Shown piece by piece: positions 5,667 to 28,597 of a stretch of 64,000 bases of DNA. Position numbers and translations under genes: made by a program. Numbering within the stretch: the first letter of the stretch is position 1; each line of letters starts with the position of its first letter. Source of the DNA: Candidatus Dormiibacterota bacterium (GTDB lineage Bacteria; Chloroflexota; Dormibacteria; Aeolococcales; Aeolococcaceae); assembly GCA_963709585.1 (NCBI GenBank), contig CAVPXI010000007.1:320001-384000 (forward strand), written 5' to 3'. The notes beneath the pieces were generated by a model. That model had not been told where the DNA came from. It saw nothing but the letters and a program-made list of their open reading frames with translations, and did no database searches.

Positions 5667-6436
5667 GTCCAGATTGTGGACGCCGGGCAGTGACGACGCC
5701 GTATCGAACCCATGAAGCCTCTGGGCACGGCCTTCAAGCCAGCACTTTCGACCGCGGCCGGGGATGGCCCACGCGGCATCGATCGACGCCACGCTGCCGC
5801 TTCATCTTCAGATCTGGGAACGTGTTGACATCCGTAAGCTAGGAGTCCGGCCAGACCCGCGTGTGTGCCGTCCCCTGAGCTTTACGTAGGTGCAGCGAGA
5901 GTGATCGATCGCTGCTATCAGCAACGCACGCATCTAGCGCGCGCGGCGGGCGGCGGCGACGGGTGTCCAGGGCGGTCTTGCTTCGTAAGGTCGATGCGCG
6001 CGCCTTGACATCACGGAACTAATTGCTACTGCCAAATCATCCAACGTCTTATAAGTCCCACATTTCAGCGCTGTCAAATTCACAAGCACCGGCTGATTCC
6101 ACAGGTCACGCTTTGGCCATCGACTGATCACGAGGTGATGAGCGAGTAGATCCTGCGCCAGATGGCGTGGCTCCTTCGACCGCAAGAGTTCTCGGCCGGT
6201 GGATCTGAAGGAAAGGGCATGAACGCTCCCGATGCGGTCGCAACGAGTCGACCAAACGGTGTCTTAGTCACCAAGAAGATGGTCTCTCTTCGAGATCGCC
6301 CGGCGCCTGGAGGCGGGCGACGTGCCTACACCCACCGGCCGAGCGAGATGGTTCCCGAGCTCCGTTGGCAAATTGCCAAGGCAGGCACACGATGATCACC
6401 CAAAACGAAGTTGACACGCGCGCTCCGCGCACGCGC

Positions 6437-9194: not shown

Positions 9195-9203
9195 TCCAAC
9201 CTC

Positions 9204-10179
9204 CTAAGGCCTCTTCATACGAGCGAACAAGCTCGATAGCCGGTTCCTTCAGACGCACAAGGTTTGCATACGCGAGCGGCTCGAAACCGCGATCCGCCGC
9301 ATACATCCGGTAACGAACGCCGTCGGTGACAATGACGTCGCGGACAACGCCGAGCATCGCTACATACCCTTTGGCTTGTTCGAGCGCCCCTTCCACCCCG
9401 GCCCCCAGACGCTTTGCTTCGATCACAAGGTGGCAATTCTCCGGGGAACGTGGCAATGCGCTGAATACTGCCACGTCGATGTGTCTCCATTGCACCGCGA
9501 TGTTCTCCGGCGGCCAGCCGAAAGCGCGTAGAGCCGGCACGACGAAATGGGCGATCAGTTCGTCTTCGCTCGGTTGATCACCGAACCGTTGGCGGTCTTG
9601 GAGAAGGGGAACGAGGTCTGCTGCTTGAGCGACGATCCCTTGCAACATACTCGGGACCTCGTCGAGGAGCGCCTGTTCGACGGGGACGTCGGGAAGAGCT
9701 CCCATCTGCCACTGCGTCGGCGGAGACTTGACAAACCGCTGGGCGAAGTCAACGGCTTCGCTGTTCCATACCCGCGCGCATCGCGTCGGATTGGCTCCGA
9801 AGACAGGTCCAGAAAATATGTAATCCGTGGGCAGGTGATACCACCGTACGCGCCGAGCATGCTGAAGATCCCATCCGTTCACATCGTCGAAGGCATTGTG
9901 GTACTTATACTCGCTCGCCACAATGCCGACCGCCCCTATGGTCGCCTGGCCGGTTCGGAGCAGGAATATGTTCCCCGCTTGGACCTCACTCGCGAAGCGC
10001 CGCACGAATCCACCTTCGAACTCTTCGTCGTCGCGGTCCGGCGACCACGGACCAGCATCTCCTGGGCCAACGAGAGCGACCCCGTACCGGAGGAAGACAT
10101 CGGCATACGAGCGCGAAATCGGACCGCCCGATATCTGCCACACGCTTTGCGATGGATCGCTTGCCTGAGTTGCGGTCAT
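9204..10179 (-). CDS. Putative endonuclease: N-terminal PUA/EVE-like domain plus HsdR_N-like PD-(D/E)XK domain
   Basis: C-half HIDVAVF..LVIEAKR..ALEQAKGY..IVTDG; N-half resembles Mrr/McrB N-terminal modules (inference). Track end is 9124; removing one T near 9229 gives ELFARMKRP-stop at 9204, overlapping the next RBS. Confidence 0.7.
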
Positions 10180-13100: not shown

Positions 13101-13188
13101 GGATCGACTTCTCAGTCGCTGCGTGTCGCGAGACCTCGGCGATCGGAAAGTCGACCTCGGCTAGGCGCTTGCAATCTTTGGGGATCAC
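10176..13188 (-). CDS. DUF1156 adenine-specific DNA methyltransferase; +1 frameshift near 13041
   Basis: [10 protein letters not shown] (ORF 12961-13188) joins ORF 10176-13022 with [10 protein letters not shown] (SAM motif), CxxxxC/CxxC insert and FTDPPYY catalytic motif. Confidence 0.92.
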
Positions 13189-16100: not shown

Positions 16101-16620
16101 ACTTTTCTTTGAGTTCGCGCTGCCATTGGAAAGCGAGATTTGCAGGGCAGACGATCAGGATGCGTTCGGCGAGTCCCCGCAGCTCAAGCTCGCGAATCAG
16201 GAGCCCCGACATAATCGTTTTGCCGGCGCCCGCGTCGTCGGCAAGGAGAAAGCGCACCCGCGGCAGCTTGAGCAGGTAGTCGTAGATCGCCTCGAGCTGG
16301 TGCGGCAGTGGGTCGACACGAGAGATTGACAGCCCGAAGTAGGGGTCGAACTCGTACGCGATGCCGAGCGCGTACGCCTGAAGGCCCAAACGGAGAAGAC
16401 GGCCATCGCCGGCGTATGAGTGCTGCGAATCAAGGATCGTCAGGCTGGCCAGATCCTCAGCAGTTAGGGTGACCCTACGGAACCGCTCCGACCGTGTTCC
16501 CGCCAACCCGACTACCCAGCTCGAAGCGCTATTCGCCTCTACGGTTTCAACGCGCATTGGCTCGTTGAATAACGCGCCAGTCAGAATCTGGCCCGTCTCG
16601 ATCGTGCTGGAGCCGGTCAC
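13185..16620 (-). CDS. SNF2-family helicase with C-terminal DUF3883 nuclease-like domain; +1 frameshift near 15195
   Basis: [55 protein letters not shown]; two track ORFs join at VEDSGTEAKL. Confidence 0.92.
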
Positions 16621-16838
16621 GACAGACTGCGCTCAATCAACACGCGACCAGCCAGCGGCCTTCGGCCTCCAGGTCGGCTGCGCGCTGTGCTCTCGGGAAG
16701 GTCTTGTCGACGGCGGCGATACGCGGCCTTCCGGCACGCAGGCGAGCAGAAACGCCGCGGCCGTCCAGTGGACCCATGTTCGATCTCCCTTCCACAACTT
16801 GCGCAACCATCACCGACACGTAGTGCCGCTCCAGCCAT
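16617..16838 (-). CDS. Small Cys-rich zinc-finger protein (CxxC...FCSxxCR)
   Basis: CASCGREIEHGSTGRPRRFCSPACRKAAYRRR; stop overlaps the SNF2 GTG start. Confidence 0.6.
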   Translation of the reverse strand: MAGAALRVGDGCASCGREIEHGSTGRPRRFCSPACRKAAYRRRRQDLPESTARSRPGGRRPLAGRVLIERSLS

Positions 16839-16957
16839 GCGGAGCGGACCCTACCACCTTTCGTCCCGCGCTACAACGCGCCGCAACGGAGCTACACGTT
16901 GACCCAGGCCCGGCCGAATCCCGAAGGCGCTGACCGAAGCTCTCCCCTTCACTTCAA

Positions 16958-18220
16958 TTACCGCCGAGTCACGCGGCGTGCAACTCTTGAGCCAGCCGCT
17001 CGAGTTCGACTCGCCTGTCCAGCTCCTGCGAGCCCGGCGGCCCGATCGATATCCCGCGAGATCACGTCGTCGACGGCTCCCGCGGAAAACGCCTGAACCT
17101 CGGCGGAACGGGCGAGCAGGTAGTGCCAAAAGTTCGAGCCAGTTGCCCGGCTCGTTGGAGTTCGCCGCGTACTTTCACCTACCTGCTGATCCGCCAGAAG
17201 TACGTCCAGCGGATGCACCCCGCGCGCGAAAAGGCCGGCGCAGAAAGCGCACTCGCAATAGCGATCTCGGTACGCAGCCGCGTCCAGATCACTGCCACAG
17301 CGGTGGGCATCGTCGAAACGCATGACGCCACGCACCCCCGGTACGTAGGTCCGACAGGACCGGGCGAAGCCGCCCAACTCTTGCGCAGGCTCGCCGTTGT
17401 CAACCCAGCCTAGATGATGAGCTACGCCCGCTACCCCAACGAGTGATAGCGCGGCCGCCGTGTACCCGAGCTGGGTTGGTATGACGGGGACACCACGCGT
17501 CGCAAGAGTCCGAATCGCGACCACCAAAGCGGCGAACGCGTCGTGCCTGCTGACCAACCATTCCTCGGTCACCCCAGGAGTCCACAGGAGGTAGCCTCGA
17601 GCGCTGGCTTCCGGCACTGAACGGAGCAGATCTCCGACTTGGTCAAGGGTGAGCCTCTCCTTTGGAATCACCACCATGGCCAGCACCGGCTCGCCTGCCG
17701 CCTCGGCCGCGGCATCGACCAGAAGGCGGTTCACCTCGTCCTCCCTCGTCGACAGGGCCACAAGCGCGGGCGCGATGAATCGGCTCGGGCGAAGCTCACG
17801 AGACAACATGGGATCGAGCATGTCGAGTTGACAGCTCATCTCAAGTCGATCCTTCTGATACCGGACGATGTTCGCGGCAAGACGCTCCCACTCCGCGACC
17901 GTCTTCACCGTTTCGAGCAAATGTCCTTCCTCGAGGTAAAGGTTCGTCCCCTCGGAGTAGTGCTTGGCGAGCCGACGGTAGTTCCGCTTCGTCTCTCCCT
18001 TGTCGTTGCGCCACCACTCCGGCACCTGGAAGCGCCAAAGCACGGGATCGACCATGTAGCCGTAGCCAGTGCCGCGCAGATGGGCCGATGTGCTCTCCGG
18101 GCTGTTCTCCAACTGATTCGCGTTGACGATGAGTTCATCGCACATGCCGCCCTGGAGATACGTGAGGTCGTCAGATGTGCGCAACCTCATGTAGTGGACG
18201 AGCTTGTTGTCCTCTGTCAT
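16958..18220 (-). CDS. Uncharacterised TIM-barrel-like protein with TGT-type CxCxxC...H zinc motif
   Basis: ATG 18220 overlaps upstream stop (ATGA); YCECAFC followed by NFWHYL; alternating beta/alpha pattern. Fold call is inference. Confidence 0.65.
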   Translation of the reverse strand: MTEDNKLVHYMRLRTSDDLTYLQGGMCDELIVNANQLENSPESTSAHLRGTGYGYMVDPVLWRFQVPEWWRNDKGETKRNYRRLAKHYSEGTNLYLEEGHLLETVKTVAEWERLAANIVRYQKDRLEMSCQLDMLDPMLSRELRPSRFIAPALVALSTREDEVNRLLVDAAAEAAGEPVLAMVVIPKERLTLDQVGDLLRSVPEASARGYLLWTPGVTEEWLVSRHDAFAALVVAIRTLATRGVPVIPTQLGYTAAALSLVGVAGVAHHLGWVDNGEPAQELGGFARSCRTYVPGVRGVMRFDDAHRCGSDLDAAAYRDRYCECAFCAGLFARGVHPLDVLLADQQVGESTRRTPTSRATGSNFWHYLLARSAEVQAFSAGAVDDVISRDIDRAAGLAGAGQASRTRAAGSRVARRVTRR

Positions 18221-19185
18221 GACAGGCTTCGGCGGTGCGCGCGCCGTTTGTCGACCTCCGCCTTGATCAGCGAGCGATCCGTTAGTTCCGGAAACGCCGC
18301 GTACACCCGCTCGACCAGGTCGGGCGTGTCCCACTTCCGGCGCAGCTTCTGCACTCGTTCATGGAGCTCGTCGTACGCATCACTTGACTGCCGGAGGCGC
18401 TCGGCCGTCGCCCGACCGGCTTCGCTCAGCTCGAAGACCTCGGCCTCCCCCTCCTGTGGAGGGGCGGCCCGCTGCATAACTGTGGCCATCATGTGCTCGA
18501 ACGAGGGTGGCGACGAGGACGCGGAGCCCGCTTGCCCGCTGGTGAGAAACCCGTTTACCCGTAAGGCTTCAGCACTATCGATGACCCTTTCATCGAACGG
18601 CCCATAGTTGTGTGCATAGAAGGTCGAGGACTCCCGATCAAGCTCCTGTTGGATCACAAACAGCAGCTTCTGCAAACGGGTCATTCCGTGGATCGCATCG
18701 CGACCCTTGCGGTCACCGTCGAGAAGCAGAATCATCATTTCCTTCAGAGATGGCCGGGGCCGGATGGAGGCTACCGCATCCTCCCGCGCAAGGCCGGCCT
18801 CCACCCATTGGCGGGCCAGCTGGTGGTACGGCCGGCGAGTCTCGTGGGAAAACTGCTTCAGCTCGCCGAGCATCTGGGGTTCGACCTTGAGGTTGAGCTG
18901 CTCTGACGATCTCGGCGCCTCGGCGTCGTCGAGCTGGGCCGCCGCGCTTGGCACTTCGCCCGACCGCAAGCCTTCAAGAATCCAGGACCGAGCCAACCCG
19001 TGGTATGGCAAAGACTTCGACGCAGCGACGGTCTTCAGTGTTGAGATCAGTCGCTTCGGGACCCTCAGAGTGATCTGAGCTGTCTTGGGCCGGGCGTAGA
19101 CAAGCGGCGGACCCTCCGGGAGATCGTCCCAAGAGTCCCCCCAATCCTCAGCGAGGAGCCCGTCGTGCTTCGTCGAGTCAGCCAT
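18217..19185 (-). CDS. Antitoxin fusion: two CopG/RHH (BrnA-like) repeats plus Panacea/SocA (DUF4065)-like domain
   Basis: QITLRVPKRLISTLK..LPYHGLARSWI and QLNLKVEPQMLGELK..RPYHQLARQWV are internal repeats; GMTRLQKLLF..FYAHNYGPF is DUF4065-like. Confidence 0.78.
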   Translation of the reverse strand: MADSTKHDGLLAEDWGDSWDDLPEGPPLVYARPKTAQITLRVPKRLISTLKTVAASKSLPYHGLARSWILEGLRSGEVPSAAAQLDDAEAPRSSEQLNLKVEPQMLGELKQFSHETRRPYHQLARQWVEAGLAREDAVASIRPRPSLKEMMILLLDGDRKGRDAIHGMTRLQKLLFVIQQELDRESSTFYAHNYGPFDERVIDSAEALRVNGFLTSGQAGSASSSPPSFEHMMATVMQRAAPPQEGEAEVFELSEAGRATAERLRQSSDAYDELHERVQKLRRKWDTPDLVERVYAAFPELTDRSLIKAEVDKRRAHRRSLS

Positions 19186-19483
19186 TGGTTGCACGGCGAA
19201 ACGCCCGCCGCTCCTTGTCGGTCATTTCCCGCGCGCTGTATACCCTCACGATCCCACCCGCCTGTTGCTCGTAGACCAGAAAGAGCATTCGTCCGACGTA
19301 GGTTCGACCGAGCAGGAGGTTCGCCCCTCCTCGGCAACGCTTGCTCGTGTGCCCGCTCGCGAAACACTGCTCCGCTTCCATGGCCGAAACGTCGTGGTGC
19401 TCCAGAAGTTTGGTCTCGTTGCTCTCATCCCAATCGAACTCGGGCAGCAGACGCCGTCCACCGCTTCTGCCACCGCCAGCCAC
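19178..19483 (-). CDS. brnT: BrnT (DUF497) family ribonuclease toxin
   Basis: FDWDESNETK..HDVSAMEAEQCF..LGRT..LFLVY..VRVYSAREMTDKERR; start uncertain. Confidence 0.85.
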   Translation of the reverse strand: MAGGGRSGGRRLLPEFDWDESNETKLLEHHDVSAMEAEQCFASGHTSKRCRGGANLLLGRTYVGRMLFLVYEQQAGGIVRVYSAREMTDKERRAFRRATNG

Positions 19484-19556
19484 CCTCGACGGCTCGCCGT
19501 CACCACTCGCTCGGGGCGAGGGCCAGGTGACGGGCCATAACGCTGCTCACTCGCAC

Positions 19557-19585
19557 ACTATAGCGTATATCCGAGAGATATACAA
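19557..19585 (-). promoter_or_regulatory. Sigma70-type promoter with palindromic operator for the brnT operon
   Basis: Minus strand TTGTAT-17bp-TATAGT; inverted repeat GTATATC-N5-GATATAC (19565-19583) overlaps the -35 and spacer. Confidence 0.8.
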
Positions 19586-19616
19586 GCGCTTCCCTTACCT
19601 GATAAGAGCCCTCGTC

Positions 19617-19657
19617 AACTTCCGATCGGCTGAGCCAGCGGTAGCCCGTTTACGCGG
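19617..19657 (-). repeat. Degenerate att site (tRNA-Gln 3' fragment plus element arm), copy A
   Basis: aacttccgatcggctgagccag matches tRNA 26910-26931 aacctccgattggctgatccag at 19/22; 19621-19657 matches 23408-23444 at 29/37. Confidence 0.72.
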
Positions 19658-19893
19658 TGTGCGTGTGCCACCGGTGCGTTCACGTCAGGCGTGTCGGCTG
19701 ATCCGGCAACCCCGATCCTGTCCATCGACTGATCCGTGCACGGGCGGCCAGCGCCTGCTCGGGGTGGCCGGCGCCTTGACCGTGCCGCTGATCATGGGTG
19801 TGACGACCTCTCGTCGTCCGAACTGGTGGCTGCCGGTAAGCTCCGAGCCTTGGCCGAGCTCCCGGCGACGAGCATCAAGGCCGCCATCAGCAG

Positions 19894-20180
19894 TTAACAA
19901 ACCAGGCCACGGTGTCGGTGACCCACCCGCCCCGTAGCGGGAACAGTGGGGATCGCGGTCACCGCTAGCACTCCGGACGACGCTCCCTGGTGCGCGGGAC
20001 TTCCGTTGTAGGTTGCCGTGAACGAGTGGCTGCCGACTGTGATCGCACTGGTCGTGAAGATGCCCGCCATTGACAACAATCGCCGAACCCAGCCGCGTGC
20101 CGCCGTCAAAGATGCTCGCGGTTCCCGACGGCTGGCCGGTTCCGGGAGCGACCGGCGCGACCGCAACGGTGAAACGTCGT
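19894..20180 (-). pseudogene. Remnant of a surface protein: bacterial Ig-like (group 3) domain with LPxTG-like tail
   Basis: FTVAVAPVAPGTGQPSGTASIFDGGTRLGSA in one frame continues as TTSAITVGSHSFTATYNG..IPTVPATG in another; no start or signal peptide. Confidence 0.65.
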
Positions 20181-20346
20181 CGTGGGCATCGATTAATGAG
20201 GCGGCGCGCGGGTTTACACACCCCGATCGCGGTAGACCACACACACCGCGATCTCAGGGGTATTCGATCACCCCCGCTCCTGCCAATCAGGTGCCCGGGC
20301 CTCCTTTCGCTCAGGCTGCTCGAGTCAGGTTGGTAGCCTGCAACCA

Positions 20347-21480
20347 ATGCCCAGCGAATATGTTGAGCGAGACGCCTGGGGCGTTGGCCTACGGTCAATT
20401 CGCGCCCAGCGCCCCAGGTGGGCGCGAGGAGGAGCCCGCGCTCAAACATTCGGAGCCGGGTTGGAACAGGCGGAGCAACTCTGGCGAGCCAGCGAAGCGG
20501 TCGGTCCTATCGCCAGTCCGCTCTTGCTCTTCTATGGGCTGACGCAGGCGGGTCGGGCCATATGTGCCGCGGGCTTGCCTGGATCCGCTTGGAGACCAGC
20601 GGAGAGCCATGGCCTCGAATTCGAAATCACCCTCCCCAGCAGCGGTGCGAATTTGGACCTGGCGTCGGTGCTCGTGAAACCGAGCGGAGAGGGTCTTGTC
20701 CAACAGGTCGCTCGCATCCTCGATTCCCCAGTGCTCGGGGGTCCGGCAACTTTGTCCGCGCTGCTCGCCTCGATCGATAAGCAACTCTTGTTTACCGATC
20801 TCCAAGTGCCTGATCCGCATCCCTTAGAAGTGAGTGAGTGGACGAAGAACCTCACGACGCTCGGCACTACCGGCACCGAAAGCCTATTCCTCGCGCCGGC
20901 GCCAGCGCGATTCGCTGCAAACACCGAACGGGTCCCGGCCCGTGCGCAGAATCTCGAATACACAAAGATCATCCCGCCGACTGCTAACGCGATTGCGGAG
21001 TGGTTGGCTGCCTATCCCACGCTCCATGAGCTTGGGACTCCCAAAGAGGTCATTGGCCCGGAGCCATCGTTAGACCGGTCCGACCGCGGTGAATGGGTCA
21101 TCAAGCTGATCTGGAATTCAGGCAACTCGATGGCTGGGGTCAAGCAGAGCGATTGGACGGCGGATCACGTCGATGAGCTGTACTCCTATGAGTGGAACGG
21201 AACCTCCGGTGTCGTGCTCCCGGCCGTTGACGGGAACACAAAGCCCCACGATCTCCTCGTCACCTGGTGGCTCGTCTTGTACTGCTTGTCGATGCTCGCG
21301 AGGTACTACCCGAAGGAGTGGACCGAGATGCTCGACGTGGACAAAAGTGAGCTTGCGGTACCAATCGAACACGTCCTGTCCGTCGCCTACTCAACGGTTC
21401 CGGATCTGATTGCCTTTCGGCTGCGATCGCTTCGTACCATCCAGGAAGAAAGACCAACCACACGCCGTAACCGAGCGTAG
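20347..21480 (+). CDS. YaaC-like protein (function unknown)
   Basis: LEQAEQLWRA..SPLLLFYGLTQAGRAI..SHGL..WWLVLYCLSMLARYYPKEW pattern typical of the YaaC family. Confidence 0.8.
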   Translation: MPSEYVERDAWGVGLRSIRAQRPRWARGGARAQTFGAGLEQAEQLWRASEAVGPIASPLLLFYGLTQAGRAICAAGLPGSAWRPAESHGLEFEITLPSSGANLDLASVLVKPSGEGLVQQVARILDSPVLGGPATLSALLASIDKQLLFTDLQVPDPHPLEVSEWTKNLTTLGTTGTESLFLAPAPARFAANTERVPARAQNLEYTKIIPPTANAIAEWLAAYPTLHELGTPKEVIGPEPSLDRSDRGEWVIKLIWNSGNSMAGVKQSDWTADHVDELYSYEWNGTSGVVLPAVDGNTKPHDLLVTWWLVLYCLSMLARYYPKEWTEMLDVDKSELAVPIEHVLSVAYSTVPDLIAFRLRSLRTIQEERPTTRRNRA

Positions 21481-21678
21481 GCGGGCCTGCACTCAGCCTT
21501 AACGCTGGCGATACAGCTCTGGACCAAGAAGGCGATCGCAAGACAGGATTCTCTGATCGTATTCAGCCGGCCAAATCGGGGTTGATTTGGAAAGAGTGAC
21601 GGAGTGCTAAAGACCTGCGCCCGGCTCCTTCTCGAGGATAGGGTCAATCTGGCGCAAGCGACCAGACAGGCCCGTACG
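21476..21678 (+). ncRNA. Candidate structured ncRNA (~200 nt) between yaaC-like gene and RT
   Basis: Nested helices found by eye: 21481-89/21667-75, 21494-97/21504-07, 21522-25/21642-45, 21527-32/21627-32, 21533-37/21555-59, 21565-70/21621-26, 21571-78/21583-90, 21648-52/21662-66 capped by GCAA. Confidence 0.65.
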
Positions 21679-21896
21679 TGCCGCATTCCCGCGTCGATCC
21701 GTGAGACCTCGCGCAGACGATAGAATCGCGGCACCCCCCTGAGCCGGTCGTTTTATTAGGAGCCTCAGCCTTCGACCTCAGCAGCATCGAGATTCGCGGC
21801 ATCCTCCCCGGCCTCCGCCGGTACGACTTAAACCACGAGTTCCCCGACGTCCTGAACTACGAGGACTTCGACCTCCGCCCGGATCTCCTGGAGCTG

Positions 21897-23291
21897 ATGA
21901 TGGCGGGTCGCGGCCGCTTCGCATTCGATGGTCTGCAGCCGGTGAAAATCGGGAGGATCCGGACCTTTCCTTACCCGAAGTTCTCGCACGTCCCGGGGGA
22001 GGCGGCGGTGCGCGAGATGGCGGATATCGGGATCGTGGAACGGGTGGTGTTGCGAGGTGTGGCGGCGAGGATCGGGGCCGAGCTCGACGCGACGCTAAGT
22101 CCCCGGATGTTCGCGTACCGCCTGATCGAGTTCGGACCGCGGTGGCAACTCCGCCACTACGCCGAGAGCCACGCCGCGTTCCGCGAGGGACAAATAAACT
22201 CCCTGGTGGATAACTGGTGGCCGTATACGCTCTTCACGGATATCGCGTCGTTCTACCCGTCCGTTGACCTCGAGATGCTCGAGCGTGAACTCCGGTACCG
22301 CTGTCCGTCTCCGAGCGCGGCGGAGGCGGTCACCGCCCTGCTCGAGATGCTGCGGAAGTGGCACGACCGGGATCAGCTTGCGGGGCTTCCGATCGGAGAA
22401 GAGGCGGCTGGCATCTTCGCCGCGGCGGTCCTGGCGCCGGTGCACGAGGTGCTCCATCGAGTGGCTGCTGACCACTACGGATACAGCGACGACCTGGTGG
22501 TGTTTGCCGGCAGCGTCAAATCCGGCCGGCATGCCCGCGAGGCACTCGACGGCCGTCTCGCAGAACTTAGGCTCACGCCGCACCCGATCAAGACGCACGA
22601 GGTCGAGAACCCCCTCGACGCCGCGCGCGAGATCCAGAACTTCGCCATCTCCTACATCGAGGACTTCGCCGGGTGGATGGACTACCTGCTGCAAGAGAAG
22701 GTGCGCGAGCGGTGGTACGAGCGCGCCGCCGACGCCATCGATGAGCCCTACCAGGTGAGCGAGGTGAAGTATCTGCTCAACAAGATGCGCGCGGCCGGCG
22801 ACCGCCATGCCGTCGGGGGGCTGCTCAAGCGCTGGGACGTGATGGAGCTGTTGCCCAAGGAGACCACCAGGTACCTCGGGGATGTGGCGCTCTACGACCC
22901 GGATGTGGTCGACGCCATGCTCCGGGCTGCCGGCCACCCAGTCACTCGCACTAACGAGGGTCTGGTGCTGCACGCTCTGAAGCTTCTGAGCCGCGCGCCG
23001 CGGGACGATCGGTTGCTCGCGGTGTGCAACCGCGTGCTGGCATCGAAGACGGCAGCGGAGCCGACCAAGGCCTGGGCGGCCTACGCGATGCGACAGGCGC
23101 CGAGTTGGAGTTGGAGCCAGACCATCGAGCGTGCCGAAACCGGACAAAAGTACCTGGTGGGACGAGCGATGCTCGCGTCGACCCGGGGGATTACGGATCT
23201 TCCGGTGACCCGGCGGAGGATCCTCGAATCCATCGGCCGAGACCGGGTAGACATGGCCGCCACCTGTGAGTGGGCGCTGAGAGCCGCCTGA
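21897..23291 (+). CDS. Reverse transcriptase, UG/Abi (defence-associated)-type with helical C-terminal region; true start probably further upstream (~21701)
   Basis: TDIASFYPSV, GLPIG, YGYSDDLVVF, LTPHPIKT; frame open back to 21705 with coding-like HEFPDVLNYEDF; no group II intron X/En domain or retron VTG motif seen. Confidence 0.88.
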   Translation: MMAGRGRFAFDGLQPVKIGRIRTFPYPKFSHVPGEAAVREMADIGIVERVVLRGVAARIGAELDATLSPRMFAYRLIEFGPRWQLRHYAESHAAFREGQINSLVDNWWPYTLFTDIASFYPSVDLEMLERELRYRCPSPSAAEAVTALLEMLRKWHDRDQLAGLPIGEEAAGIFAAAVLAPVHEVLHRVAADHYGYSDDLVVFAGSVKSGRHAREALDGRLAELRLTPHPIKTHEVENPLDAAREIQNFAISYIEDFAGWMDYLLQEKVRERWYERAADAIDEPYQVSEVKYLLNKMRAAGDRHAVGGLLKRWDVMELLPKETTRYLGDVALYDPDVVDAMLRAAGHPVTRTNEGLVLHALKLLSRAPRDDRLLAVCNRVLASKTAAEPTKAWAAYAMRQAPSWSWSQTIERAETGQKYLVGRAMLASTRGITDLPVTRRRILESIGRDRVDMAATCEWALRAA

Positions 23292-23380
23292 GGCAACGTA
23301 ACAGTCCCGCCAATGTTGCACTGGTCTGTTCGCAGCGCGTGACCGCATCTCTTCCAATACCAAGCGGATGCGAAATCGCA

Positions 23381-23444
23381 TTGGAGGAGAAGAGAGCGAT
23401 TCGAGCCTCAGATCGACTGAGCCAGCGTTAGGCGTTCTACGTGG
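23381..23444 (-). repeat. Degenerate att site (tRNA-Gln 3' half plus element arm), copy B
   Basis: 23398-23425 gattcgagcctcagatcgactgagccag matches tRNA 26904-26931 at 23/28, ending at the anticodon; ttgg (CCA end) and purine tract align further left. Confidence 0.8.
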
Positions 23445-23504
23445 CGTTCGCGATTTCGGTGGTCATGAACTGATTGGCATCGAATGAGCGCGCATCCCCG
23501 GTCA

Positions 23505-23520
23505 TCAGGAGCGACTAATC
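23505..23520 (+). repeat. 16-bp direct repeat TCAGGAGCGACTAATC, copy 1 (possible integrase arm site)
   Basis: Identical to 26800-26815. Confidence 0.75.
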
Positions 23521-23791
23521 TCCTGCCTCCGGGTCCTTGAGCATCCGTCCATGTCCGCTCACGCTTACTCACCGTGGTGCACGCGGGCACGCACCACGAG
23601 CAGCGTTCGCGGGGCCAGATTTCAGGAGCGATCGCTGCACCGTTGGTGGCCGTCGAGGTTCAGCGATGCTCGCCGGTGCGATCCCTGATGGCCCCATCGC
23701 CTCACCAAACGCCTCGAGAGCTCCCTCTCACATTCGCCCTCCACGGGTGCGGGGTCGGTGCTCCTTAACATCAGACGCCTCATCGGGCGTG

Positions 23792-24544
23792 TCAGCTGTC
23801 CACAAAGTCGGGGGCATATCGGCGTCGTTCCTCATCTGCCTGATCGAGCGCATCCACAACCGGTTTCCACACCGCGTCCGGACGACCGCCGCCTCGGCGA
23901 TACCCCTTGCCTGCGTCCAGATGGAGTCCGTCAAAGAGCGACTCGATCCGTCGCCGTAGGTTCGGCCACTCTGCGAACGCCGCGCCATCGGTTCGGAACC
24001 GCGTGACAATCGATTCGATCGCGTCGGCGACTTCGGCCGCAATGATCTCCTGGCTCTCCTCCCGATCGAAGGATGGATAGGGTCGGATCCGGGCCCATAT
24101 CTGTGCCACCTCGACCCGCGCATCCGGAGCGCCGGCGATCAGATGTTTGACGGCGACCACGAGCTCGTCGGGGGCACGATGCAGCTTCGCTTCGAGAGAT
24201 TCGGCCCTGGTCCGTAGTAAGGAGCAGGCATCGGTCATCGACGCAAGGCGCTGTCGTGTCGCCGTTAGCTCCAGTTCCACTTGTCCGTGTGCCTCGGCCC
24301 TACGCTGCAACGCGTCGTGTGCCTCGACGATCCTGGCAAGAGCGTCTCGTGTCGCCGCTAGCTCTCGACGGACCTCGGCGCGGGCAGCGGTGAGGGCGTC
24401 CGCCTTGATCTTCGCGACGTCAAGCGCTGCCAGACGAGCGTATTCCGAAGGCTTCACGCCCATGCCGCGGGCCAGGGTGTCGATGGTCTGCCGCTCTGCC
24501 TTGCTTTACCGAAAGGCGAGCGTCCGACTACGTTGTTCGGCCAT
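23792..24544 (-). pseudogene. MobC-like ribbon-helix-helix plus coiled-coil protein with in-frame TAA at codon 13
   Basis: MAEQRSRTLAFR*SKAERQTIDTLARGMGVKPSEYARLAAL fits the RHH/MobC pattern across the stop; continues in frame into ORF 23792-24463. Confidence 0.62.
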
Positions 24545-24587
24545 CGTGATGGCGGGTGTCAGGCTCCCCGACCCCGCGAGCCTGATC

Positions 24588-24647
24588 CGTTTGCATACCG
24601 TTTCGACTACGTTTACGCGCCGTTTGCACCGCGTTTGCGACGCGGTT
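24588..24647. repeat. Six phased CGTTT motifs with exact 11-bp period
   Basis: CGTTT at 24588, 24599, 24610, 24621, 24632 and CGGTT at 24643. Confidence 0.85.
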
Positions 24648-25149
24648 CCGAGGCCACTGCGGGGTCTCTACGCGCGCGCGTAAGGGTGCTGCGCGGCACG
24701 TGTATGCGACCCGTTCCACGGGGCATCCTGTGCGGCCCCGCGTGCGCGAGGCTAGGCCCCACGGACTCGGGTCGGTCGAGAGGGTCCGTCGCCATCGCTC
24801 ACAGGTCGACCCACGGCTGATCGCCGGCGGGCCACCCACAGCCCGCACCAAGTGGCTCGTCAACACGAGTGACCGGCAGGCCGTCGAGGGAGACGCTGGT
24901 CGGCTGCCTGGCCTCGCATGTCGCCGCGGCGATGGGCGCAAGCGTCGTAGCCAGCCGCTGCACGCTCGGCCAGTGCACTTGCAGGAGACCGCGCCTTCGA
25001 GGAACTGGCAGAGGACTCTGGCGGACGCCCCTTGCATCGCACCGAGTGGGCCGTCAGGAACGTACGACACTCCCGCGAGGACCGAGTCAAGGTCCGGGAA
25101 CATCTGCCAAGTGCACCGGACCACCCTCAGCTGGCCGCAAAACTGCCGG

Positions 25150-25358
25150 ATATGGACATTTCCCATCAGCACTCGAAGTCCCTGGTGGAGACACCTGCAT
25201 CCACGACGAACATTCGGCAAAGGCTCTGATGCGTATTCAACGCACTGCGAAACTGACATATATGGACATTTCCCATCAACCATCGTCGTCTCCGGACCTG
25301 ATGGGAGAAGTTACATTAACCGATGGGTAACTCCATATCCCATAAGGGATATCCATAC
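25150..25358. promoter_or_regulatory. Operator-like direct and inverted repeats upstream of the XRE gene
   Basis: ATATGGACATTTCCCATCA at 25150-25168 and 25260-25278; degenerate inverted copies TGATGGGAGAAGTTACAT (25299) and CGATGGGTAACTCCATAT (25321). Confidence 0.7.
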
Positions 25359-25499
25359 TGCGAGGTACCTTGACGTCCGATCGCGCAACGCGCATCATGC
25401 CCACATGATCTGCACAAGACGGGTGGCGATGCCATCCACTGCCGCCGAGACAGACGCGGCGCAGGTGTAGCGTCCGGCAATGACTGACGAGGGAGAGCT

Positions 25500-25763
25500 A
25501 TGAGTATCCGCATCAACGGCGAGGTCTTGAAACACATGGCCGCGCTTCGCGGTTGGAATGGCTCGGCCCTCGCCAAGAAGGCGGGCGTGGTCAACTCCAC
25601 GGTGAGCAGGGCCTTCGCCGGCGACGAAATATCGGTGACGACGCTGAGGCTCTTGGCCACAGCCCTGAAAGAAACGTCCGTCGACGAGGTTATCGAAAGG
25701 TTGCTCGGCCGAGGCGACCCGCCGCCCGAAGATGATCGGCCACCCACACCCGGGAACACGTAG
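25500..25763 (+). CDS. XRE-family helix-turn-helix regulator
   Basis: LRGWNGSALAKKAGVVNSTVSRAFAG; GAGGGAG RBS. Confidence 0.85.
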   Translation: MSIRINGEVLKHMAALRGWNGSALAKKAGVVNSTVSRAFAGDEISVTTLRLLATALKETSVDEVIERLLGRGDPPPEDDRPPTPGNT

Positions 25764-25792
25764 CGAGCTGATGGCGTCGGTGCACTCGGAGC

Positions 25793-26734
25793 TCACCGCC
25801 GGCTCGGGGACGTGAGCGCTCTGACCATGGCGTTGTAGCTGTCGTCCTTGTTGAGGTGGGCGTAGCAGCTGGCGATGACCTCAGGGGATGCTCCGGCGAT
25901 GAAAGACAGCTGCACTGAGTTCATGTCCCGGCGCAGCATCTCGGTGATCCAGGAATGCCGGAGCAAGTGGGGGTGTATGCGCTTGGGAATCCCGGCTTTG
26001 GCGACGGTGTCCTTGACGATTTGATAGACGCCGCCGCTGGTCAGGGCGTCATAGTCGCCGAGTGGGCCGCGCCGAGAGGTCAGGAAGATTGCATCCGAGC
26101 TGCGCTCGTCTGGGCGATCCGAGATCAGCCGGTCGAGCCGACGGGCGAGGGTTGGCGGCACCGGCACATCCCGGATTCGATCGCGCTTACCGTGGACGCG
26201 AACGTGCACCTGCCGGCCGCTGCGGATCAGGTCGCCGGCGGTGAGGCGCGTGAGCTCGTCGAGCCGGAGGCCGCAGTCGGCGAACACCCGGATGATCACC
26301 TTGTCCCTCTCCAGGAGCGCTGCCTGCTCGAGCTGATCAATCTCGGCGCGGCTGAGCACGTCTCGGATGGGGCGGCCTCGGCGGGGAAGCTGAGGCTTCG
26401 CGGTGACCACTTCGCCTTCCCGACTCGCCCAGCCGAATAGCAGGCGAATCGGACGGATGTAGGTGGCGACCGTGTGCTTGAAGAGCGGCTGGCCCGCTTT
26501 CGTGGTACGAGTGAGGAGCTCCGAGGTGAACCGGTCGATGGCGCGGCGGTCCAGCTGGCTGAGGTCGGTGATGCCCTCCCGTTCGCACCAGGGGAGAAAC
26601 ACCGACTGGATCGAGTAGGTGTACTGGTGTTCGCTGCGCGGCGACAGGCCGCGCGCCCGGCAGTTGCTCAGATAGTCGTCGGCGAGGCGCGTCAGTGAGG
26701 ACGGGGCCCTGCTCTTGAGGAGTCGTACGGTCAT
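25793..26734 (-). CDS. Tyrosine recombinase / phage integrase
   Basis: SAM-like N-terminus; CGLRLDEL, HGKRD, HPHLLRH, C-terminal YAHL; adjacent to tRNA 3' end. Confidence 0.93.
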   Translation of the reverse strand: MTVRLLKSRAPSSLTRLADDYLSNCRARGLSPRSEHQYTYSIQSVFLPWCEREGITDLSQLDRRAIDRFTSELLTRTTKAGQPLFKHTVATYIRPIRLLFGWASREGEVVTAKPQLPRRGRPIRDVLSRAEIDQLEQAALLERDKVIIRVFADCGLRLDELTRLTAGDLIRSGRQVHVRVHGKRDRIRDVPVPPTLARRLDRLISDRPDERSSDAIFLTSRRGPLGDYDALTSGGVYQIVKDTVAKAGIPKRIHPHLLRHSWITEMLRRDMNSVQLSFIAGASPEVIASCYAHLNKDDSYNAMVRALTSPSRR

Positions 26735-26799
26735 GGTGGAAGCCCTTCACGCAGATATTTGTGGATTTATCGTCGTCGACTGAGCCGAAAAATCAATGC

Positions 26800-26815
26800 T
26801 CAGGAGCGACTAATC
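26800..26815 (+). repeat. 16-bp direct repeat TCAGGAGCGACTAATC, copy 2
   Basis: Identical to 23505-23520; TCGACTGAGCC at 26776 also recurs at 23413. Confidence 0.75.
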
Positions 26816-26888
26816 GGGTGATGTTTTGGGGACTTATCCACAGGTCGAAATCACCCGAAAAGGCCCGAATCGAATTCAAAATTCGGCT

Positions 26889-26963
26889 TGGCTGGGGAGG
26901 GAGGATTCGAACCTCCGATTGGCTGATCCAGAATCAGCTGCCTTACCACTTGGCCACTCCCCA
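26889..26963 (-). tRNA. tRNA-Gln (CTG)
   Basis: TGGGGAGTGGCCAAGTGGTAAGGCAGCTGATTCTGGATCAGCCAATCGGAGGTTCGAATCCTCCCTCCCCAGCCA: cloverleaf, anticodon CTG, GTTCGAAT T-loop, encoded CCA. Confidence 0.97.
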
Positions 26964-27041
26964 GCGGAGGCCATCGAGTGTACCGGACGCCTCCCAGCGC
27001 CCCTGTTTGCCACCTCGGCACGCGGCATATACTGGACAGTG

Positions 27042-27362
27042 ATGGACTTGCTCGAGTTGCTCCGCTTCCAGGCCCGGCGCTATCGGTGCTCCGCCTGCGG
27101 CGAGAACATGGCCGACTGCGGGATCAATGTTCTTGCACAGCAGGGCAATCGGGCACTGGTCCGCGTCACCTGCGCGTCGTGCAACGACGAGAACCTGCTT
27201 CAGATCATCTTCCAGACCGAGGCCGAGGAGAGCAAGGTCCCCGCCATCGACGAGGGCTTCCCCGACGTCGCCGACCCGATCACCGGTGACGAGATGCTCG
27301 AGCTCCACTCCATCCTCTCCTCGCACGAAGGCGCACTGACCGAGCTGCTCGTCAAGCGCTGA
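27042..27362 (+). CDS. Small zinc-ribbon protein (two CxxC)
   Basis: CSACG and CASCN; strong GC3 codon bias; TATACT -10 at 27028. Confidence 0.75.
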   Translation: MDLLELLRFQARRYRCSACGENMADCGINVLAQQGNRALVRVTCASCNDENLLQIIFQTEAEESKVPAIDEGFPDVADPITGDEMLELHSILSSHEGALTELLVKR

Positions 27363-27403
27363 CGGCGATCTCCGCCGGGGGTCGTGCGACACTTCCCCGC
27401 CAT

Positions 27404-27802
27404 ATGGCGAGCCTCGATCCCGGCCAGAGCATGGTGTTCGACGCCCTCTACGGGCTCGAGTTCGGCGAGACCACCCCGGAACACATGACCGCCTCGTGCC
27501 CGGTCACCCCCAAGGTCCTCCAGCCGTTCGGGATCGTCCACGGCGGCGTCTTCTGCGCGATGGGCGAGACCCTCACCTCGGTCGGCACCTACCTGGGAGT
27601 CAAAGACGCCGGCAACATCTCGGTCGGGATGTCCAACAACATGAGCTTCCTCCGCCCCATCACCAACGGCACCATCCATGCCGACGCGAGGCCGCGCCAC
27701 CGCGGGCGCACGACCTGGATCTGGGACGTGGAGATCACCAACGACGACGGCGCGCTCTGCGCCATCGGCCGGATCACGATCGCGGTTCGGCCCCGGCCCT
27801 AG
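27404..27802 (+). CDS. PaaI family thioesterase
   Basis: QPFGIVHGG..GET, SFLRP, HRGRTT hot-dog motifs. Confidence 0.9.
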   Translation: MASLDPGQSMVFDALYGLEFGETTPEHMTASCPVTPKVLQPFGIVHGGVFCAMGETLTSVGTYLGVKDAGNISVGMSNNMSFLRPITNGTIHADARPRHRGRTTWIWDVEITNDDGALCAIGRITIAVRPRP

Positions 27803-28208
27803 TCTCCTGGCGGTCGACCAGCCGCTTGGCCGCGTAGGCGCCGCCCGCCGAGCCGGCCGCGGACACCCCGCGGAGCACGACCTTCTGCCAGATCGGGGTC
27901 TTGTCGCCCCCCTTTTTGATCTCCTTGCGCAGTGCGTGCAGTTCGGCCGCGAGGTCGTCCAGCGTGACCAGCGCCGTCTCCTCCTCCTCGGCGACTTCGC
28001 CGCGCAAGCGCGACCGGATGAACACGATCGTCCCGACCAGCGCGATCGCCACCCCGGCGATCGCCGCATATCGCGGGGCATCGCGGCGCAGGCGCGCCTT
28101 CCAGTCGAGCTCGGCACGCACCTTCTGCTCCAGCCGGCCGGCGCTCTGCTCGAGCGCCTGCTTGCTCAGCTCCCGCTGACGCTGCGCTTGGTCAGTTCCC
28201 GGAGCCAC
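27774..28208 (-). CDS. Hypothetical membrane-anchored protein (DUF3618-like)
   Basis: Coiled N-terminus, one TM helix; GTG 28208 overlaps upstream gene. Confidence 0.6.
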   Translation of the reverse strand: MAPGTDQAQRQRELSKQALEQSAGRLEQKVRAELDWKARLRRDAPRYAAIAGVAIALVGTIVFIRSRLRGEVAEEEETALVTLDDLAAELHALRKEIKKGGDKTPIWQKVVLRGVSAAGSAGGAYAAKRLVDRQETRAGAEPRS

Positions 28209-28597
28209 TCGGCATCCTCCTTCAACGTTGCCTGCACGTTCTTCCGTCCCCGTTTGATCACCTTTCTCGCCCGTGATTGCCCGATGAAGATGAGCACCAT
28301 CGCGACGATCAGGAAGATCCCCCCGAGCGCGGCCCATCTCGCCCATTCGCTGCCGAGGATTGTCAGCCCCGACGGCAGCGCACCCAAAGCCTCGATCACA
28401 CCGATCAAGAGGAACACGAATGCGACCATGATCATCGCGATCGCGATTGCGAGCTGAATGATCGCTCGCTTCAGCTCGGCGCCGACCACCTCCATCTCGG
28501 CGCGCGCCAGCTTGATGGCGTCCTCGACCACCTGACGCGCGAGCGAGATGGGGTCGGTGCTCTCAGGCGCGTCGCCGTCCACAGTACCTCCAGGCAT
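28166..28597 (-). CDS. Phage-holin-family (YqjE-like) membrane protein
   Basis: LARAEMEV..ELK followed by two TM helices and TLKEDAEWL. Confidence 0.75.
   Translation of the reverse strand: MPGGTVDGDAPESTDPISLARQVVEDAIKLARAEMEVVGAELKRAIIQLAIAIAMIMVAFVFLLIGVIEALGALPSGLTILGSEWARWAALGGIFLIVAMVLIFIGQSRARKVIKRGRKNVQATLKEDAEWLRELTKRSVSGS

Follow-up and report, generated by a model that had tools for sequence, protein, structure and literature searches.

The tRNA-Gln(CTG) locus described here is probably a tandem-accretion array of mostly integrase-less modules, as judged from its repeated sites and from comparison with related genomes. Two degenerate copies of the tRNA 3′ part, A and B, are by their sequence two of the 12 copies of a putative recombination-site family of ~110 nt. 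All 12 sites have one orientation and lie on the 3′ side of the tRNA gene, spanning 92 kb of contig C7 (C7:254,957–346,930). These sites are restricted to one locus and one strand, homology breakpoints fall at their cores, and a single conserved integrase is present. The original prediction, made from a 64,000-nt stretch of this contig (the window, to which coordinates without prefix refer), had interpreted the copies as att-type sites delimiting modules, which agrees with the position of module breakpoints at site cores in relatives; the extent it had given the island, 19617–26963 (7 kb), proved too small, with sites out to C7:254,957.

The anchor and the sites within the window are as follows:

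26889–26963, minus strand: tRNA-Gln(CTG), Rfam tRNA 66.8 bits, the intact anchor on the attR side of the array
23381–23521, plus strand: site B, with a decayed tRNA 3′ half (23381–23425), the core GACTGAGCCAGCGTTAG and a conserved arm to GAGCGACTAATC
19617–19735, plus strand: site A, with a tRNA-like part (19617–19638), the core GGCTGAGCCAGCGGTAG and an arm with TCGGCTGATCC and ATCGACTGATCC
6051–6129, plus strand: partial site with arm blocks only (model positions 33–111; profile E 1.6e-4, covariance model R1 E 1.3e-6)

The Rfam search returned the tRNA as its sole match, with no other Rfam family. The 3′ 46 nt of the tRNA (26889–26934) were duplicated exactly at C7:269390–269435, about 77.5 kb leftward and beyond the window, and the left side of this repeat carried 13 bp of the native tRNA-downstream flank. 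The same 13-bp flank was seen beside the tRNA in a related genome, G020, in which 71 bp separate the tRNA from a conserved left-flank gene. Repeats matching the host's own tRNA variant at 46/46 positions were present in G000, the genome of the window (77.5–77.7 kb off), and in G004 (6.1 kb off), and the tRNA 3′ repeat matched at 43/46 in G016 and 42/46 in G003. Degenerate repeats 3.5 and 7.3 kb from the tRNA, together with the exact 46-bp repeat at 77.5 kb, form the pattern of tandem accretion; relatives show the same arrangement, G004 with its 46/46 repeat among them. A tRNA-Gly-like gene is also located within the array.

In an ungapped scan of the window, the best non-self matches of the tRNA 3′ part were, as originally noticed, 23398–23425 (23/28, copy B) and 19617–19638 (19/22, copy A). 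Both copies stop at CAG, the complement of the anticodon, and they share the substitutions GATTGG to GATCGR and GATCC to GAGCC as well as the adjacent arm. The likeness of A and B was thus reproduced, whereas the in-register count previously given as 29/37 came to 28/37; over a longer stretch the two matched at 35/47 positions, and by blastn-short at 33/43. To the left, copy B continues to about 23381 as a complete but decayed tRNA 3′ half, and site B is the left boundary of the integrase module. When both strands of the genome (3,520,809 bases) were scanned for the tRNA 3′ part, a score of at least 21/28 was reached at only four places (the tRNA, the exact copy at C7:269405–269432, copy B and tRNA-Gln(ttg) on contig C21) and a score of at least 18/22 at only three (the tRNA, the exact copy and copy A). 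Since so few places in the 3.52-Mb genome reached an equal score, such matches are rare genome-wide, and an objection raised with the original prediction, that they might be common, does not hold. The leftward search that it proposed found further sites and the exact attL.

The site core, with the consensus GATYGGCTGA-7 nt-TTA, is derived from the tRNA-Gln anticodon stem-loop. To its right lies the conserved arm with two direct TCGRCTGAYC repeats ~35 nt apart, and the same motif pair is found in the P arm, which separates the integrase gene from the tRNA. A blastn-short search of the complete genome with the copy A arm alone recovered only plus-strand copies on C7 between 255 and 340 kb. A site profile gave 12 matches with E < 1e-3, all on the plus strand of C7:254.9–343.5 kb, and E ≥ 0.01 in the rest of the 3.52 Mb. 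R1 again found 12 sites, two of which were absent from its training alignment: the site at C7:254,957 (E 3.9e-16), left of the exact 46-bp repeat, and the partial site at 6051–6129, which divides the Hma/TA module from the helicase module. Of the 42 genus genomes, 25 carried R1 sites; among 151 genomes sampled across the class, seven were positive, all from this genus, against 0/141 in 47 other genera. Where a contig also included the tRNA gene, 70 of the 71 listed sites were co-oriented and on the 3′ side of that gene, and co-oriented sites numbered 11/11 in the single-contig genome G019 (within 126 kb), 12/12 on G016:C1 and 11/11 on G005:C2.

Across 31 sites from 11 species, three arm columns were invariant and ten more were at least 90% conserved; neutral DNA among the same species was only 44–75% identical. 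The 7-nt spacer falls into at least five classes: TCCAGAA (as in the tRNA), GCCAGCG (A and B), TGCCAAA, TGAGAAG and TGTGGAC. If spacer identity is needed by the enzyme, many pairs, including B × tRNA, would recombine poorly. The 5-bp inverted repeat of the core was paired in 69.7% of cells, compared with 69.1% after shuffling (217 of 500 shuffles were as high). RNAalifold predicted 0 pairs in the 121-column site alignment, which showed no hairpin or covariation, and no reading frame in the site was open in more than 12 of 31 copies, with no clear period-3 signal.

The module adjacent to the tRNA encodes the integrase:

25793–26734, minus strand: Xer-like tyrosine recombinase (integrase), 313 aa, PF00589 74.2 bits
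26735–26888, plus strand: P arm, separating the integrase start from the tRNA 3′ end
25500–25763, plus strand: Cro/CI-type HTH protein, 87 aa, a putative ORF convergent with the integrase

The gene for this tyrosine integrase lies 154 nt from the tRNA 3′ end. As originally predicted, there is one integrase: PF00589 matched at 11 places in the genome, only one of them on C7 (614 kb). No serine recombinase (PF00239) was found on C7, and the sole match in the genome was on contig C4. Eleven of the 12 modules are site-flanked units without any recombinase. Substitutions in the integrase, counted by codon position, were 39/24/108, a third-position excess that the rest of its module did not show, and by this measure the integrase is under purifying selection. 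Orthologues are 92% identical in two species and occupy the same position in relatives; those of G008, G021, G022 and G012 are broken, and G019 retains a remnant in which window positions 23400–23673 are joined to 26680–26968. Sites were carried by 12 of the 15 genus genomes that have a tRNA-side integrase orthologue and by 13 of the 27 that lack one, a weak association that counts against the array reading.

In the family sense, the likeness to an integron drawn in the original prediction did not hold: unlike attC sites, which are imperfect inverted repeats read as folded hairpins, these sites show no hairpin or covariation, and the integrase fails the IntI models (TIGR02249, 46.5 bits with a cut-off of 265; NF011946, 19.2 with a cut-off of 435). 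Its best model matches were XerA, XerC and XerD, all under cut-off (XerC 88.6 vs. 335, XerD 80.8 vs. 329.6), and the closest solved structures were XerA and XerD. Almost every genome of the genus contains paralogues of 34–37% identity elsewhere, which look like the housekeeping XerC/XerD pair; the array integrase would then be a dedicated paralogue. The P arm contains direct copies of the arm motif, TCGACTGAGCC at 26776–26786 and GCGACTAATC at 26806–26815, and a partial profile match at C7:346774–346820, and positions 26778–26928 are 97–98% identical to two other species. For the HTH ORF, the codon-position counts (18/17/25) provide weak coding evidence, and the protein is a possible regulator or directionality factor. 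The rest of the 3.5-kb module had no match in Pfam, NCBIfam or PADLOC and lacked a codon-position signal.

The array is split into 12 modules of 1.0–14.6 kb with genes on both strands, and the inter-site distances in four genomes (n = 47) have a median of 4.9 kb and a range of 0.5–24 kb. Modules contain whole operons with regulators, and the GC content of the array is 62.7% compared with 67.2% for the remaining contig. The three modules named originally (integrase, YaaC-RT and TA/restriction) were all present. The window covers the last 27 kb of the 92-kb array, with the following cargo:

21897–23291, plus strand: reverse transcriptase of class UG23 (defence-associated UG/Abi RT)
20347–21480, plus strand: YaaC-like protein (PF14175), whose gene partners that of the RT within the 3.8-kb A–B module
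19178–19483, minus strand: BrnT-like toxin, right end of a 13.6-kb module
18217–19194, minus strand: ORF that includes a CopG/BrnA-like antitoxin part, also at the right end of that 13.6-kb module
6437–16620, minus strand: Hma-type defence system
15136–16620 and 13185–15392, minus strand: HmaA, split
10176–13022, minus strand: HmaB methylase
7656–9194 and 6437–8401, minus strand: HmaC, split
1–5792, minus strand: UvrD-family helicase/PD-(D/E)XK nuclease gene pair, of which the second gene is split at 4878–4894

The helicase/nuclease pair fills a module that starts at the site C7:318,232, left of the window. The original description of the modules as defence cassettes was too narrow, as eight of the 12 contain genes of metabolic, regulatory or unknown function. 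Pfam showed no conjugation genes.

Comparison between species used metagenome-assembled genomes (G000 is 88.8% complete, in 24 contigs). In 13 of 182 end pairs, the homology-block end was no more than 60 nt from a site in each of the two genomes, against an expectation from 1000 circular shifts of 0.05 on average and 2 at maximum, and these ends represent at least five independent boundaries. The check proposed originally, a comparison of this locus across relatives, was run: module boundaries there match the sites, and modules are gained, lost and re-neighboured. In G005, two additional site-bounded cassettes (1.7 and 1.0 kb) separate the integrase module from the left neighbour that it also has in G017. 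In G004, the integrase module is placed between the tRNA and a module that directly abuts the tRNA in G010. The 8.3-kb module headed by the site at C7:254,957 is common to G016 and G017 and starts exactly at the core, with an offset of d = +4 in both G000 and G016. Moreover, a 1.7-kb CHAP-domain cassette was 90.8–94.9% identical where the core flank was 80.1–89.8% identical, in all 10 species pairs; as measured by divergence, the recent movement of this one cassette between species is shown. The integrase module, the 8.3-kb module and a 6.3-kb module diverge about like the core flank, which counts against the array reading and indicates that a large part of the array is of old, vertical descent.

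We propose that circular modules with one site would insert at either the tRNA or a resident site, and that recombination between two co-oriented sites would remove a module. Crossover may occur in or beside the anticodon-loop equivalent (about site positions 6–20), such that the arm right of the core would go with the right-hand module and the tRNA-like left half with the left-hand module. From the sequence, we infer that circular intermediates exist and that the resident integrase is the catalyst, acting in trans. Most modules would then depend on this integrase, like cis-mobilizable elements or integron cassettes.

Alternatively, each module may have come as an independent element with its own integrase, later deleted, leaving the sites as non-functional attL; the resident integrase would then move its own 3.5-kb module only, or nothing. 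We consider this unlikely. Broken or deleted integrases in several relatives, such as the G019 remnant, fit such a history, but the 614-kb contig has no second PF00589 match, intact or fragmentary, so that 11 integrase genes would need to have been lost without trace. The differing spacer classes are also expected of dead scars. Orthologous sites were better conserved than the adjoining DNA in one of the four sets examined and no better in the other three, which counts against the array reading and gives no sign of continuing selection on most sites, although the arm columns are conserved across species despite the low neutral identity. The core-like divergence of the three large modules is compatible with old scars, whereas single-gene cassettes of 1.0–1.7 kb are too small for an integrase, there was gain or loss of two site-bounded cassettes between neighbours inherited vertically, and the 1.7-kb cassette was recently transferred. 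Degenerated elements and scattered partial tRNAs in Prochlorococcus islands are read as remnants of this kind (bioRxiv 10.1101/2020.12.28.424599).

A single composite integration, in which the 77.5-kb segment between the exact 46-bp repeats is today's mobile unit and A and B are fossil sites inside it, brought from earlier hosts, is improbable. The 46/46 repeat with its 13-bp native flank matching G020 would be explained in this way, as would the far greater degeneracy of the inner copies, and an integrase at the tRNA end is usual in tRNA islands. However, the site family continues left of the exact repeat, where the site at C7:254,957 heads a shared module, and relatives differ by module rather than by whole island. 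Such an integration accounts for the outer repeat but not for the array, with which it is compatible as the latest event. That the repeat is instead a regulatory element, small RNA, leader peptide or MITE-like repeat enriched in a variable region is hardly credible: the arm is conserved as sequence blocks, but the core grades into true tRNA 3′ halves (up to 46/46), occurs at one locus on one strand, coincides with homology breakpoints and has no predicted pairs, consistent open frame or Rfam match beyond the tRNA.

Beyond the tandem-accretion array itself, it is conceivable, and we suggest it only tentatively, that a whole genus of uncultured Dormibacterota keeps a chromosomal gene-capture platform that does the integron's job with different parts. 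Such a platform would combine a tRNA anchor, double-stranded sites of ~110 nt derived from the anticodon arm and one Xer-like integrase working in trans, which would insert, excise and reshuffle integrase-less modules ranging from single genes to 24-kb operons and exchanged between species, with cargo for defence, metabolism and regulation. If the integrase acts in trans, the locus would be an independently evolved gene-capture system and would explain the exchange of defence (Hma, UG23 RT and toxin-antitoxin) and metabolic operons in an uncultured, globally common soil phylum, which would proceed without recognisable conjugative or phage machinery. The well-defined sites are testable in E. 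coli without culturing the host, and the arm motif and site model make it simple to mark off the accessory modules of these genomes.

Tandem accretion is already known at tRNA and tmRNA genes; the present case is extreme and integron-like in its logic, with up to a dozen or more co-oriented sites, one integrase, cassettes down to ~1 kb and cassette movement between species. The Dehalococcoides ssrA islands and the tycheposons come closest. The former are described as a series of tandem islands, all within 100 kb and on the same flank of one small-RNA gene; direct 20-bp repeats of the 3′ end of this gene, together with additional conserved flanking sequence, mark the limits of every island (McMurdie et al., 2011, PMC3146451). 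About half of them (15 vs. 16) are described as lacking an integration module and are proposed to be cis-mobilizable and joined by accretion; a CcrB-like serine recombinase is encoded in a six-gene module, and the cargo is varied (PMC3146451). On that description, tRNA-Gly-like sequences occur in both systems, as a pseudo-tRNA inside ssrA islands and a gene inside this array, whereas a tmRNA target, the serine recombinase DsiB and a 20-bp repeat contrast with tRNA-Gln, an Xer-like tyrosine recombinase and a ~110-nt site here (PMC3146451). Tycheposons of Prochlorococcus are tyrosine-recombinase elements at tRNA genes in which newcomers push older elements inward, partial tRNAs and degenerated elements accumulate and the cargo serves defence and niche adaptation (bioRxiv 10.1101/2020.12.28.424599). 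The array shares with them a tRNA-targeting tyrosine recombinase, accretion, partial tRNAs and defence cargo. As described there, however, tycheposons carry their own integrase and replication hallmark genes, of which a helicase/primase module was not found in the integrase module here, and their remnants are read as decay, not as a conserved site family (bioRxiv 10.1101/2020.12.28.424599).

The likeness to integrons lies in one Xer-like recombinase at the end of co-oriented, site-bounded, integrase-less units that differ between relatives. In place of attI the anchor here is a tRNA gene, the integrase lies inside the first module, and promoterless single-ORF co-oriented cassettes expressed from Pc contrast with modules of 1–24 kb with their own operons on both strands. 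Xer-dependent elements and the pdif modules of Acinetobacter plasmids are likewise integrase-less, bounded by short recombinase sites and moved by an Xer-type enzyme encoded elsewhere. They rely on the housekeeping XerC/XerD and on 28-bp dif-like sites that alternate in orientation, unlike the dedicated Xer paralogue and ~110-nt co-oriented tRNA-derived sites of this array. In ICE/CIME accretion (ICESt1/ICESt3 of Streptococcus thermophilus), att-flanked recombinase-less elements lie in tandem with an integrase element and are gained, lost and co-mobilised by site-specific recombination at common att sites. The concept is the same as that of the array described here, but ICE/CIME arrays comprise 2–3 elements and depend on a conjugative partner, whereas up to 12 or more sites are associated here with an integrase element of 3.5 kb.

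The window, C7:320001-384000 of genome G000, contains a single tRNA gene:

26889-26963, minus strand, tRNA-Gln(ctg)

Because this gene lies on the minus strand, its 3' end faces left. Two degenerate copies of its 3' part, copy A at 19617-19638 (19/22) and copy B at 23398-23425 (23/28), had been proposed to delimit tandem modules of an island, and they were indeed the best non-self matches to the tRNA 3' part in the window. Matches of equal score were not common genome-wide when both strands of the 3.52-Mb genome (G000) were searched. At 21/28 or better, the search returned the tRNA, copy B, the Gln tRNA (ttg) on contig C21, an exact copy at C7:269405-269432 on the contig carrying the window, and nothing else; at 18/22 or better, it returned the tRNA, the same exact copy and copy A alone. 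Copies A and B also have substitutions and the adjacent arm in common, as predicted (28/37 and 35/47 in register, 33/43 by blastn-short). The degenerate tRNA copies are confirmed, far beyond chance.

The predicted extent of the island, 19617-26963, proved too small, since an exact tRNA repeat lies 77.5 kb to the left and related sites reach C7:254,957. This repeat, C7:269390-269435, copies the 3' 46 nt of the tRNA, starting at the acceptor end and including CCAGAAT of the anticodon loop. Its left side carries 13 bases of native tRNA-downstream flank, the flank found beside the tRNA in the related genome G020, where the conserved left-flank gene is 71 bp from the tRNA. The tRNA variant of the host itself is repeated exactly in G000 and G004 and nearly so in G016 and G003, and these repeats show genuine integration into the tRNA. 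The tRNA-Gln genes of the genus (loci L026-L039) have two T-stem variants, GGGAGG/CCTCC and GAGAGG/CCTCT, one compensatory pair apart; the variable part of the T-stem belongs to the half that would come from an integrating element.

Alignment of the sites defined a unit in which a core replacing the anticodon stem-loop is followed by TCGnTCTAC, GAACTC, TCGGCTGAYCCGAC and CATCGACTGATC, the last two being direct repeats of the motif that makes up the core's left half (TYGGCTGAKCC). The motif pair recurs in the arm that separates the tRNA from the integrase start (26776-26786 and 26806-26815), where a partial profile match was obtained. The arm of copy A alone, used as a query, matched only C7, at 255.0, 294.4, 297.9, 299.4 and 313.4 kb, all on the plus strand. 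Across the whole genome, the site profile gave 12 matches with E<1e-3, all within C7:254.9-343.5 kb and on the plus strand, and all other matches had E ≥0.01. Moreover, a sequence-only covariance model of the sites (R1) recovered 12 sites, two of them absent from its training alignment. The spacers fall into at least five sequence classes, with GCCAGCG common to A and B and TCCAGAA in the tRNA. Orthologous sites were clearly more conserved than their surroundings in one of four sets only (site B).

A hairpin or attC-like fold of the site was rejected, as covariation in the 5-bp inverted repeat of the core was no better than in shuffles and RNAalifold returned no consensus pairs. A coding or leader-peptide function was likewise rejected: each frame was open in at most 12 of 31 copies, and a clear period-3 signal was absent. 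In addition, Rfam detected no RNA family besides the tRNA in window 19000-27200.

The sites divide C7:254,957-346,930 into 12 modules, and the GC content of this array is 62.7% vs. 67.2% for the rest of the contig:

Module 1, 14.5 kb, conserved 8.3-kb block, then IS110 and a LuxR gene
Module 2, 14.6 kb, MFS transporter, IS256, Ser/Thr kinase-AAA-TPR protein and FHA protein
Module 3, 1.0 kb, GNAT acetyltransferase
Module 4, 9.4 kb, two-component system and solute-binding protein
Module 5, 3.4 kb, RibD_C, AHSA1 and HxlR genes
Module 6, 1.5 kb, one gene of unknown kind
Module 7, 14.0 kb, sugar-catabolism and ABC-transporter block
Module 8, 4.9 kb, unknown genes and a tRNA-Gly-like gene
Module 9, 7.8 kb, UvrD-family helicase/nuclease pair
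Module 10, 13.6 kb, Hma system and BrnT-like toxin with a CopG-like partner
Module 11, 3.8 kb, YaaC-like protein and UG23 reverse transcriptase
Module 12, 3.5 kb, integrase module, beside the tRNA

The IS110-family element is present in three copies that are 100% identical (C7:266581-268040, C4:323055-324514 and C8:72826-74284), the first of which lies inside the array beside the exact tRNA repeat. The tRNA-Gly(GCC)-like gene (L003:18000-18075, equal to C7:318000-318075, plus strand) is located within the array, 2 kb left of the window, with a site 160 nt to its right; its strand is opposite to that of tRNA-Gln. It scored 50.2 bits with the Rfam tRNA model and has an unusual T-loop. Splitting into two overlapping ORFs affects three long genes, namely the UvrD-like helicase-nuclease (4878-4894), HmaC (7656-8401) and HmaA (15136-15392), which may reflect frameshift decay or long-read homopolymer errors. 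At 20347-23291, a YaaC-like protein (PF14175) is the partner of the UG23-class reverse transcriptase. The accessible text of PMC9226505 gives NUDIX or SLATT as UG23 partners and describes the defence role of UG23 as inconclusive. The 416-nt gap between YaaC and the reverse transcriptase had no Rfam match, and neither YaaC nor the remaining ORFs of the integrase module had a PADLOC or NCBIfam match.

The distribution of the sites was evaluated in relatives, all of the genomes being MAGs; no claim is based on G027, G032 and G036, which are flagged as unpublished. The tRNA and its right flank were kept in 24/24 same-genus genomes of the first draw, with 80-91% identity. Of 42 genomes of the genus, 25 had sites detected by R1, with a maximum of 17 in one genome, and in a class-wide draw of 151 genomes the positives were confined to this genus (0/141 in 47 other genera). 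On tRNA-bearing contigs, 70 of the 71 listed sites were co-oriented and on the 3' side of the tRNA, as in the single-contig genome G019 (11/11 within 126 kb), G016:C1 (12/12) and G005:C2 (11/11). The only exception to co-orientation among the 71 belongs to a head-to-head pair in G010. There, two opposite-facing sites share one core at array coordinate 32006 (L033). Sites were found in 12 of 15 genomes of the genus with an orthologue of the tRNA-side integrase and in 13 of 27 without one, a weak association confounded by incomplete MAGs.

Whether module boundaries in relatives miss the sites, an outcome named as refuting by the original prediction, was checked by comparing the arrays of 13 genomes (14 array sequences). 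The boundaries coincide with the sites: 13 of 182 pairs of homology-block ends lay ≤60 nt from a site in both genomes, against a mean of 0.05 and a maximum of 2 in circular shifts (n = 1000). These 13 pairs are not 13 independent events because the genomes are related; they involve at least five different boundaries. In G000 and G016 the 8.3-kb module starts 4 nt past the core, against 52 nt in G017; its site carries a 43/46 tRNA copy in G016 and has an unrelated left half in G000. One module with sites at both ends is common to G000 and G019. In G005, two additional cassettes of 1.7 and 1.0 kb, each bounded by sites, separate the left neighbour seen in G017 from the integrase module, and in G004 the integrase module and a preceding displaced tRNA copy stand between the tRNA and the module that abuts the tRNA in G010. 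Furthermore, the neighbours of a 6.3-kb module differ among G016, G019 and G010. To the right of the sites, homology starts at site positions ~7-20; therefore, each arm moves together with the right-hand module. The crossover would take place in or beside the anticodon-loop equivalent.

Public runs were found as assembled contigs (10 runs, holding ≤31% of the sampled words), and four were compared with window 12000-28500. Their contigs contained no 19638/23425 or 23425/26931 joint, a result that is uninformative either way, as contigs cannot show rare junctions. A 23541/26700 joint, with 138 other letters between, was present in two public soil runs (X1 and X2) on a contig ~10% diverged. It was rejected as an excision product, being a relative's integrase-deleted form, as in G019 and G015. 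The analysis as a whole revealed no recombination product.

Sequence divergence differed among modules. The integrase, 8.3-kb and 6.3-kb modules show roughly the divergence of the core flank, which fits long residence. The 1.7-kb integrase-less cassette, which encodes a 143-aa CHAP-domain protein of the peptidoglycan hydrolase type (L033:13121-13552), is 90.8-94.9% identical vs. 80.1-89.8% for the core flank, in 10/10 species pairs; this comparison points to one cassette having been transferred singly and recently.

PF00589 had 11 matches in the genome, one of them on C7 (window 25793-26734), and the sole resolvase-family match was on C4. The 313-aa integrase belongs to the simple tyrosine recombinases; its best models were XerA, XerC and XerD, all under cut-off, and its nearest solved structures are XerA and XerD. 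Substitutions relative to the G005 and G017 orthologues numbered 39/24/108 at the three codon positions; the other 2 kb of the module showed no such bias, and window 26778-26928, mostly the arm beside the tRNA, was 97-98% identical to these genomes. Were the integrase module alone excised, the tRNA would be left with a decayed 3' half, which may be why this module is stably resident. The five nearest named integrase loci are recorded as lying in MAGs of Candidatus Dormibacterota, one of them labelled Saccharimonadales. At least seven other tyrosine-recombinase genes of G000 lie within ~1.3 kb of tRNA genes (Ser, Leu and Thr on C4, Gly on C8, Lys on C10, Gly on C14 and Ala on C20).

A 20-nt degenerate core pattern identified 75 loci in metagenome_contigs, 32 with a site-profile match, and none in viral_contigs. 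Several of the metagenome loci repeat the site-integrase-tRNA layout; none of these is demonstrably circular. One 2170-nt metagenome contig (L082) encodes an integrase 56% identical to that of the window, directly left of an attL-type junction and with no intact tRNA, representing either an attP form or an internal module that carries an integrase.

Tandem modules delimited by tRNA-Gln att copies are a real finding, and this core idea withstands its own refutation test. The description as an integron-like array holds in part: tRNA-derived sites bound the modules, but IntI (46.5 with the integron-integrase model vs. a cut-off of 265), a folded attC and promoterless single-ORF cassettes are lacking. 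The array is not an integron. In its behaviour it resembles a tandem-accretion array that includes cis-mobilizable members. No description of the array was found in the literature outside subscription journals on Dormibacterota integrases, genomic islands and mobile elements and on integron-like tRNA cassette arrays. The closest precedent in the literature covered is the Dehalococcoides ssrA islands, for which the available part of PMC3146451 describes numerous direct repeats no more than 100 kb from ssrA, 15 of 31 islands without an integration module, and a tRNA-Gly-like pseudo-tRNA, comparable to the tRNA-Gly-like gene of the array; those islands differ in using a serine recombinase and a 20-bp repeat. 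Tycheposons, as presented in the accessible portion of bioRxiv 10.1101/2020.12.28.424599, similarly stack at tRNA genes, but each has its own integrase and replication genes. The tandem-accretion class is already known, and the array is a variant of it, set apart by its long conserved site, 11 of 12 modules being integrase-less, its genus-wide spread and the evidence of single-cassette transfer.
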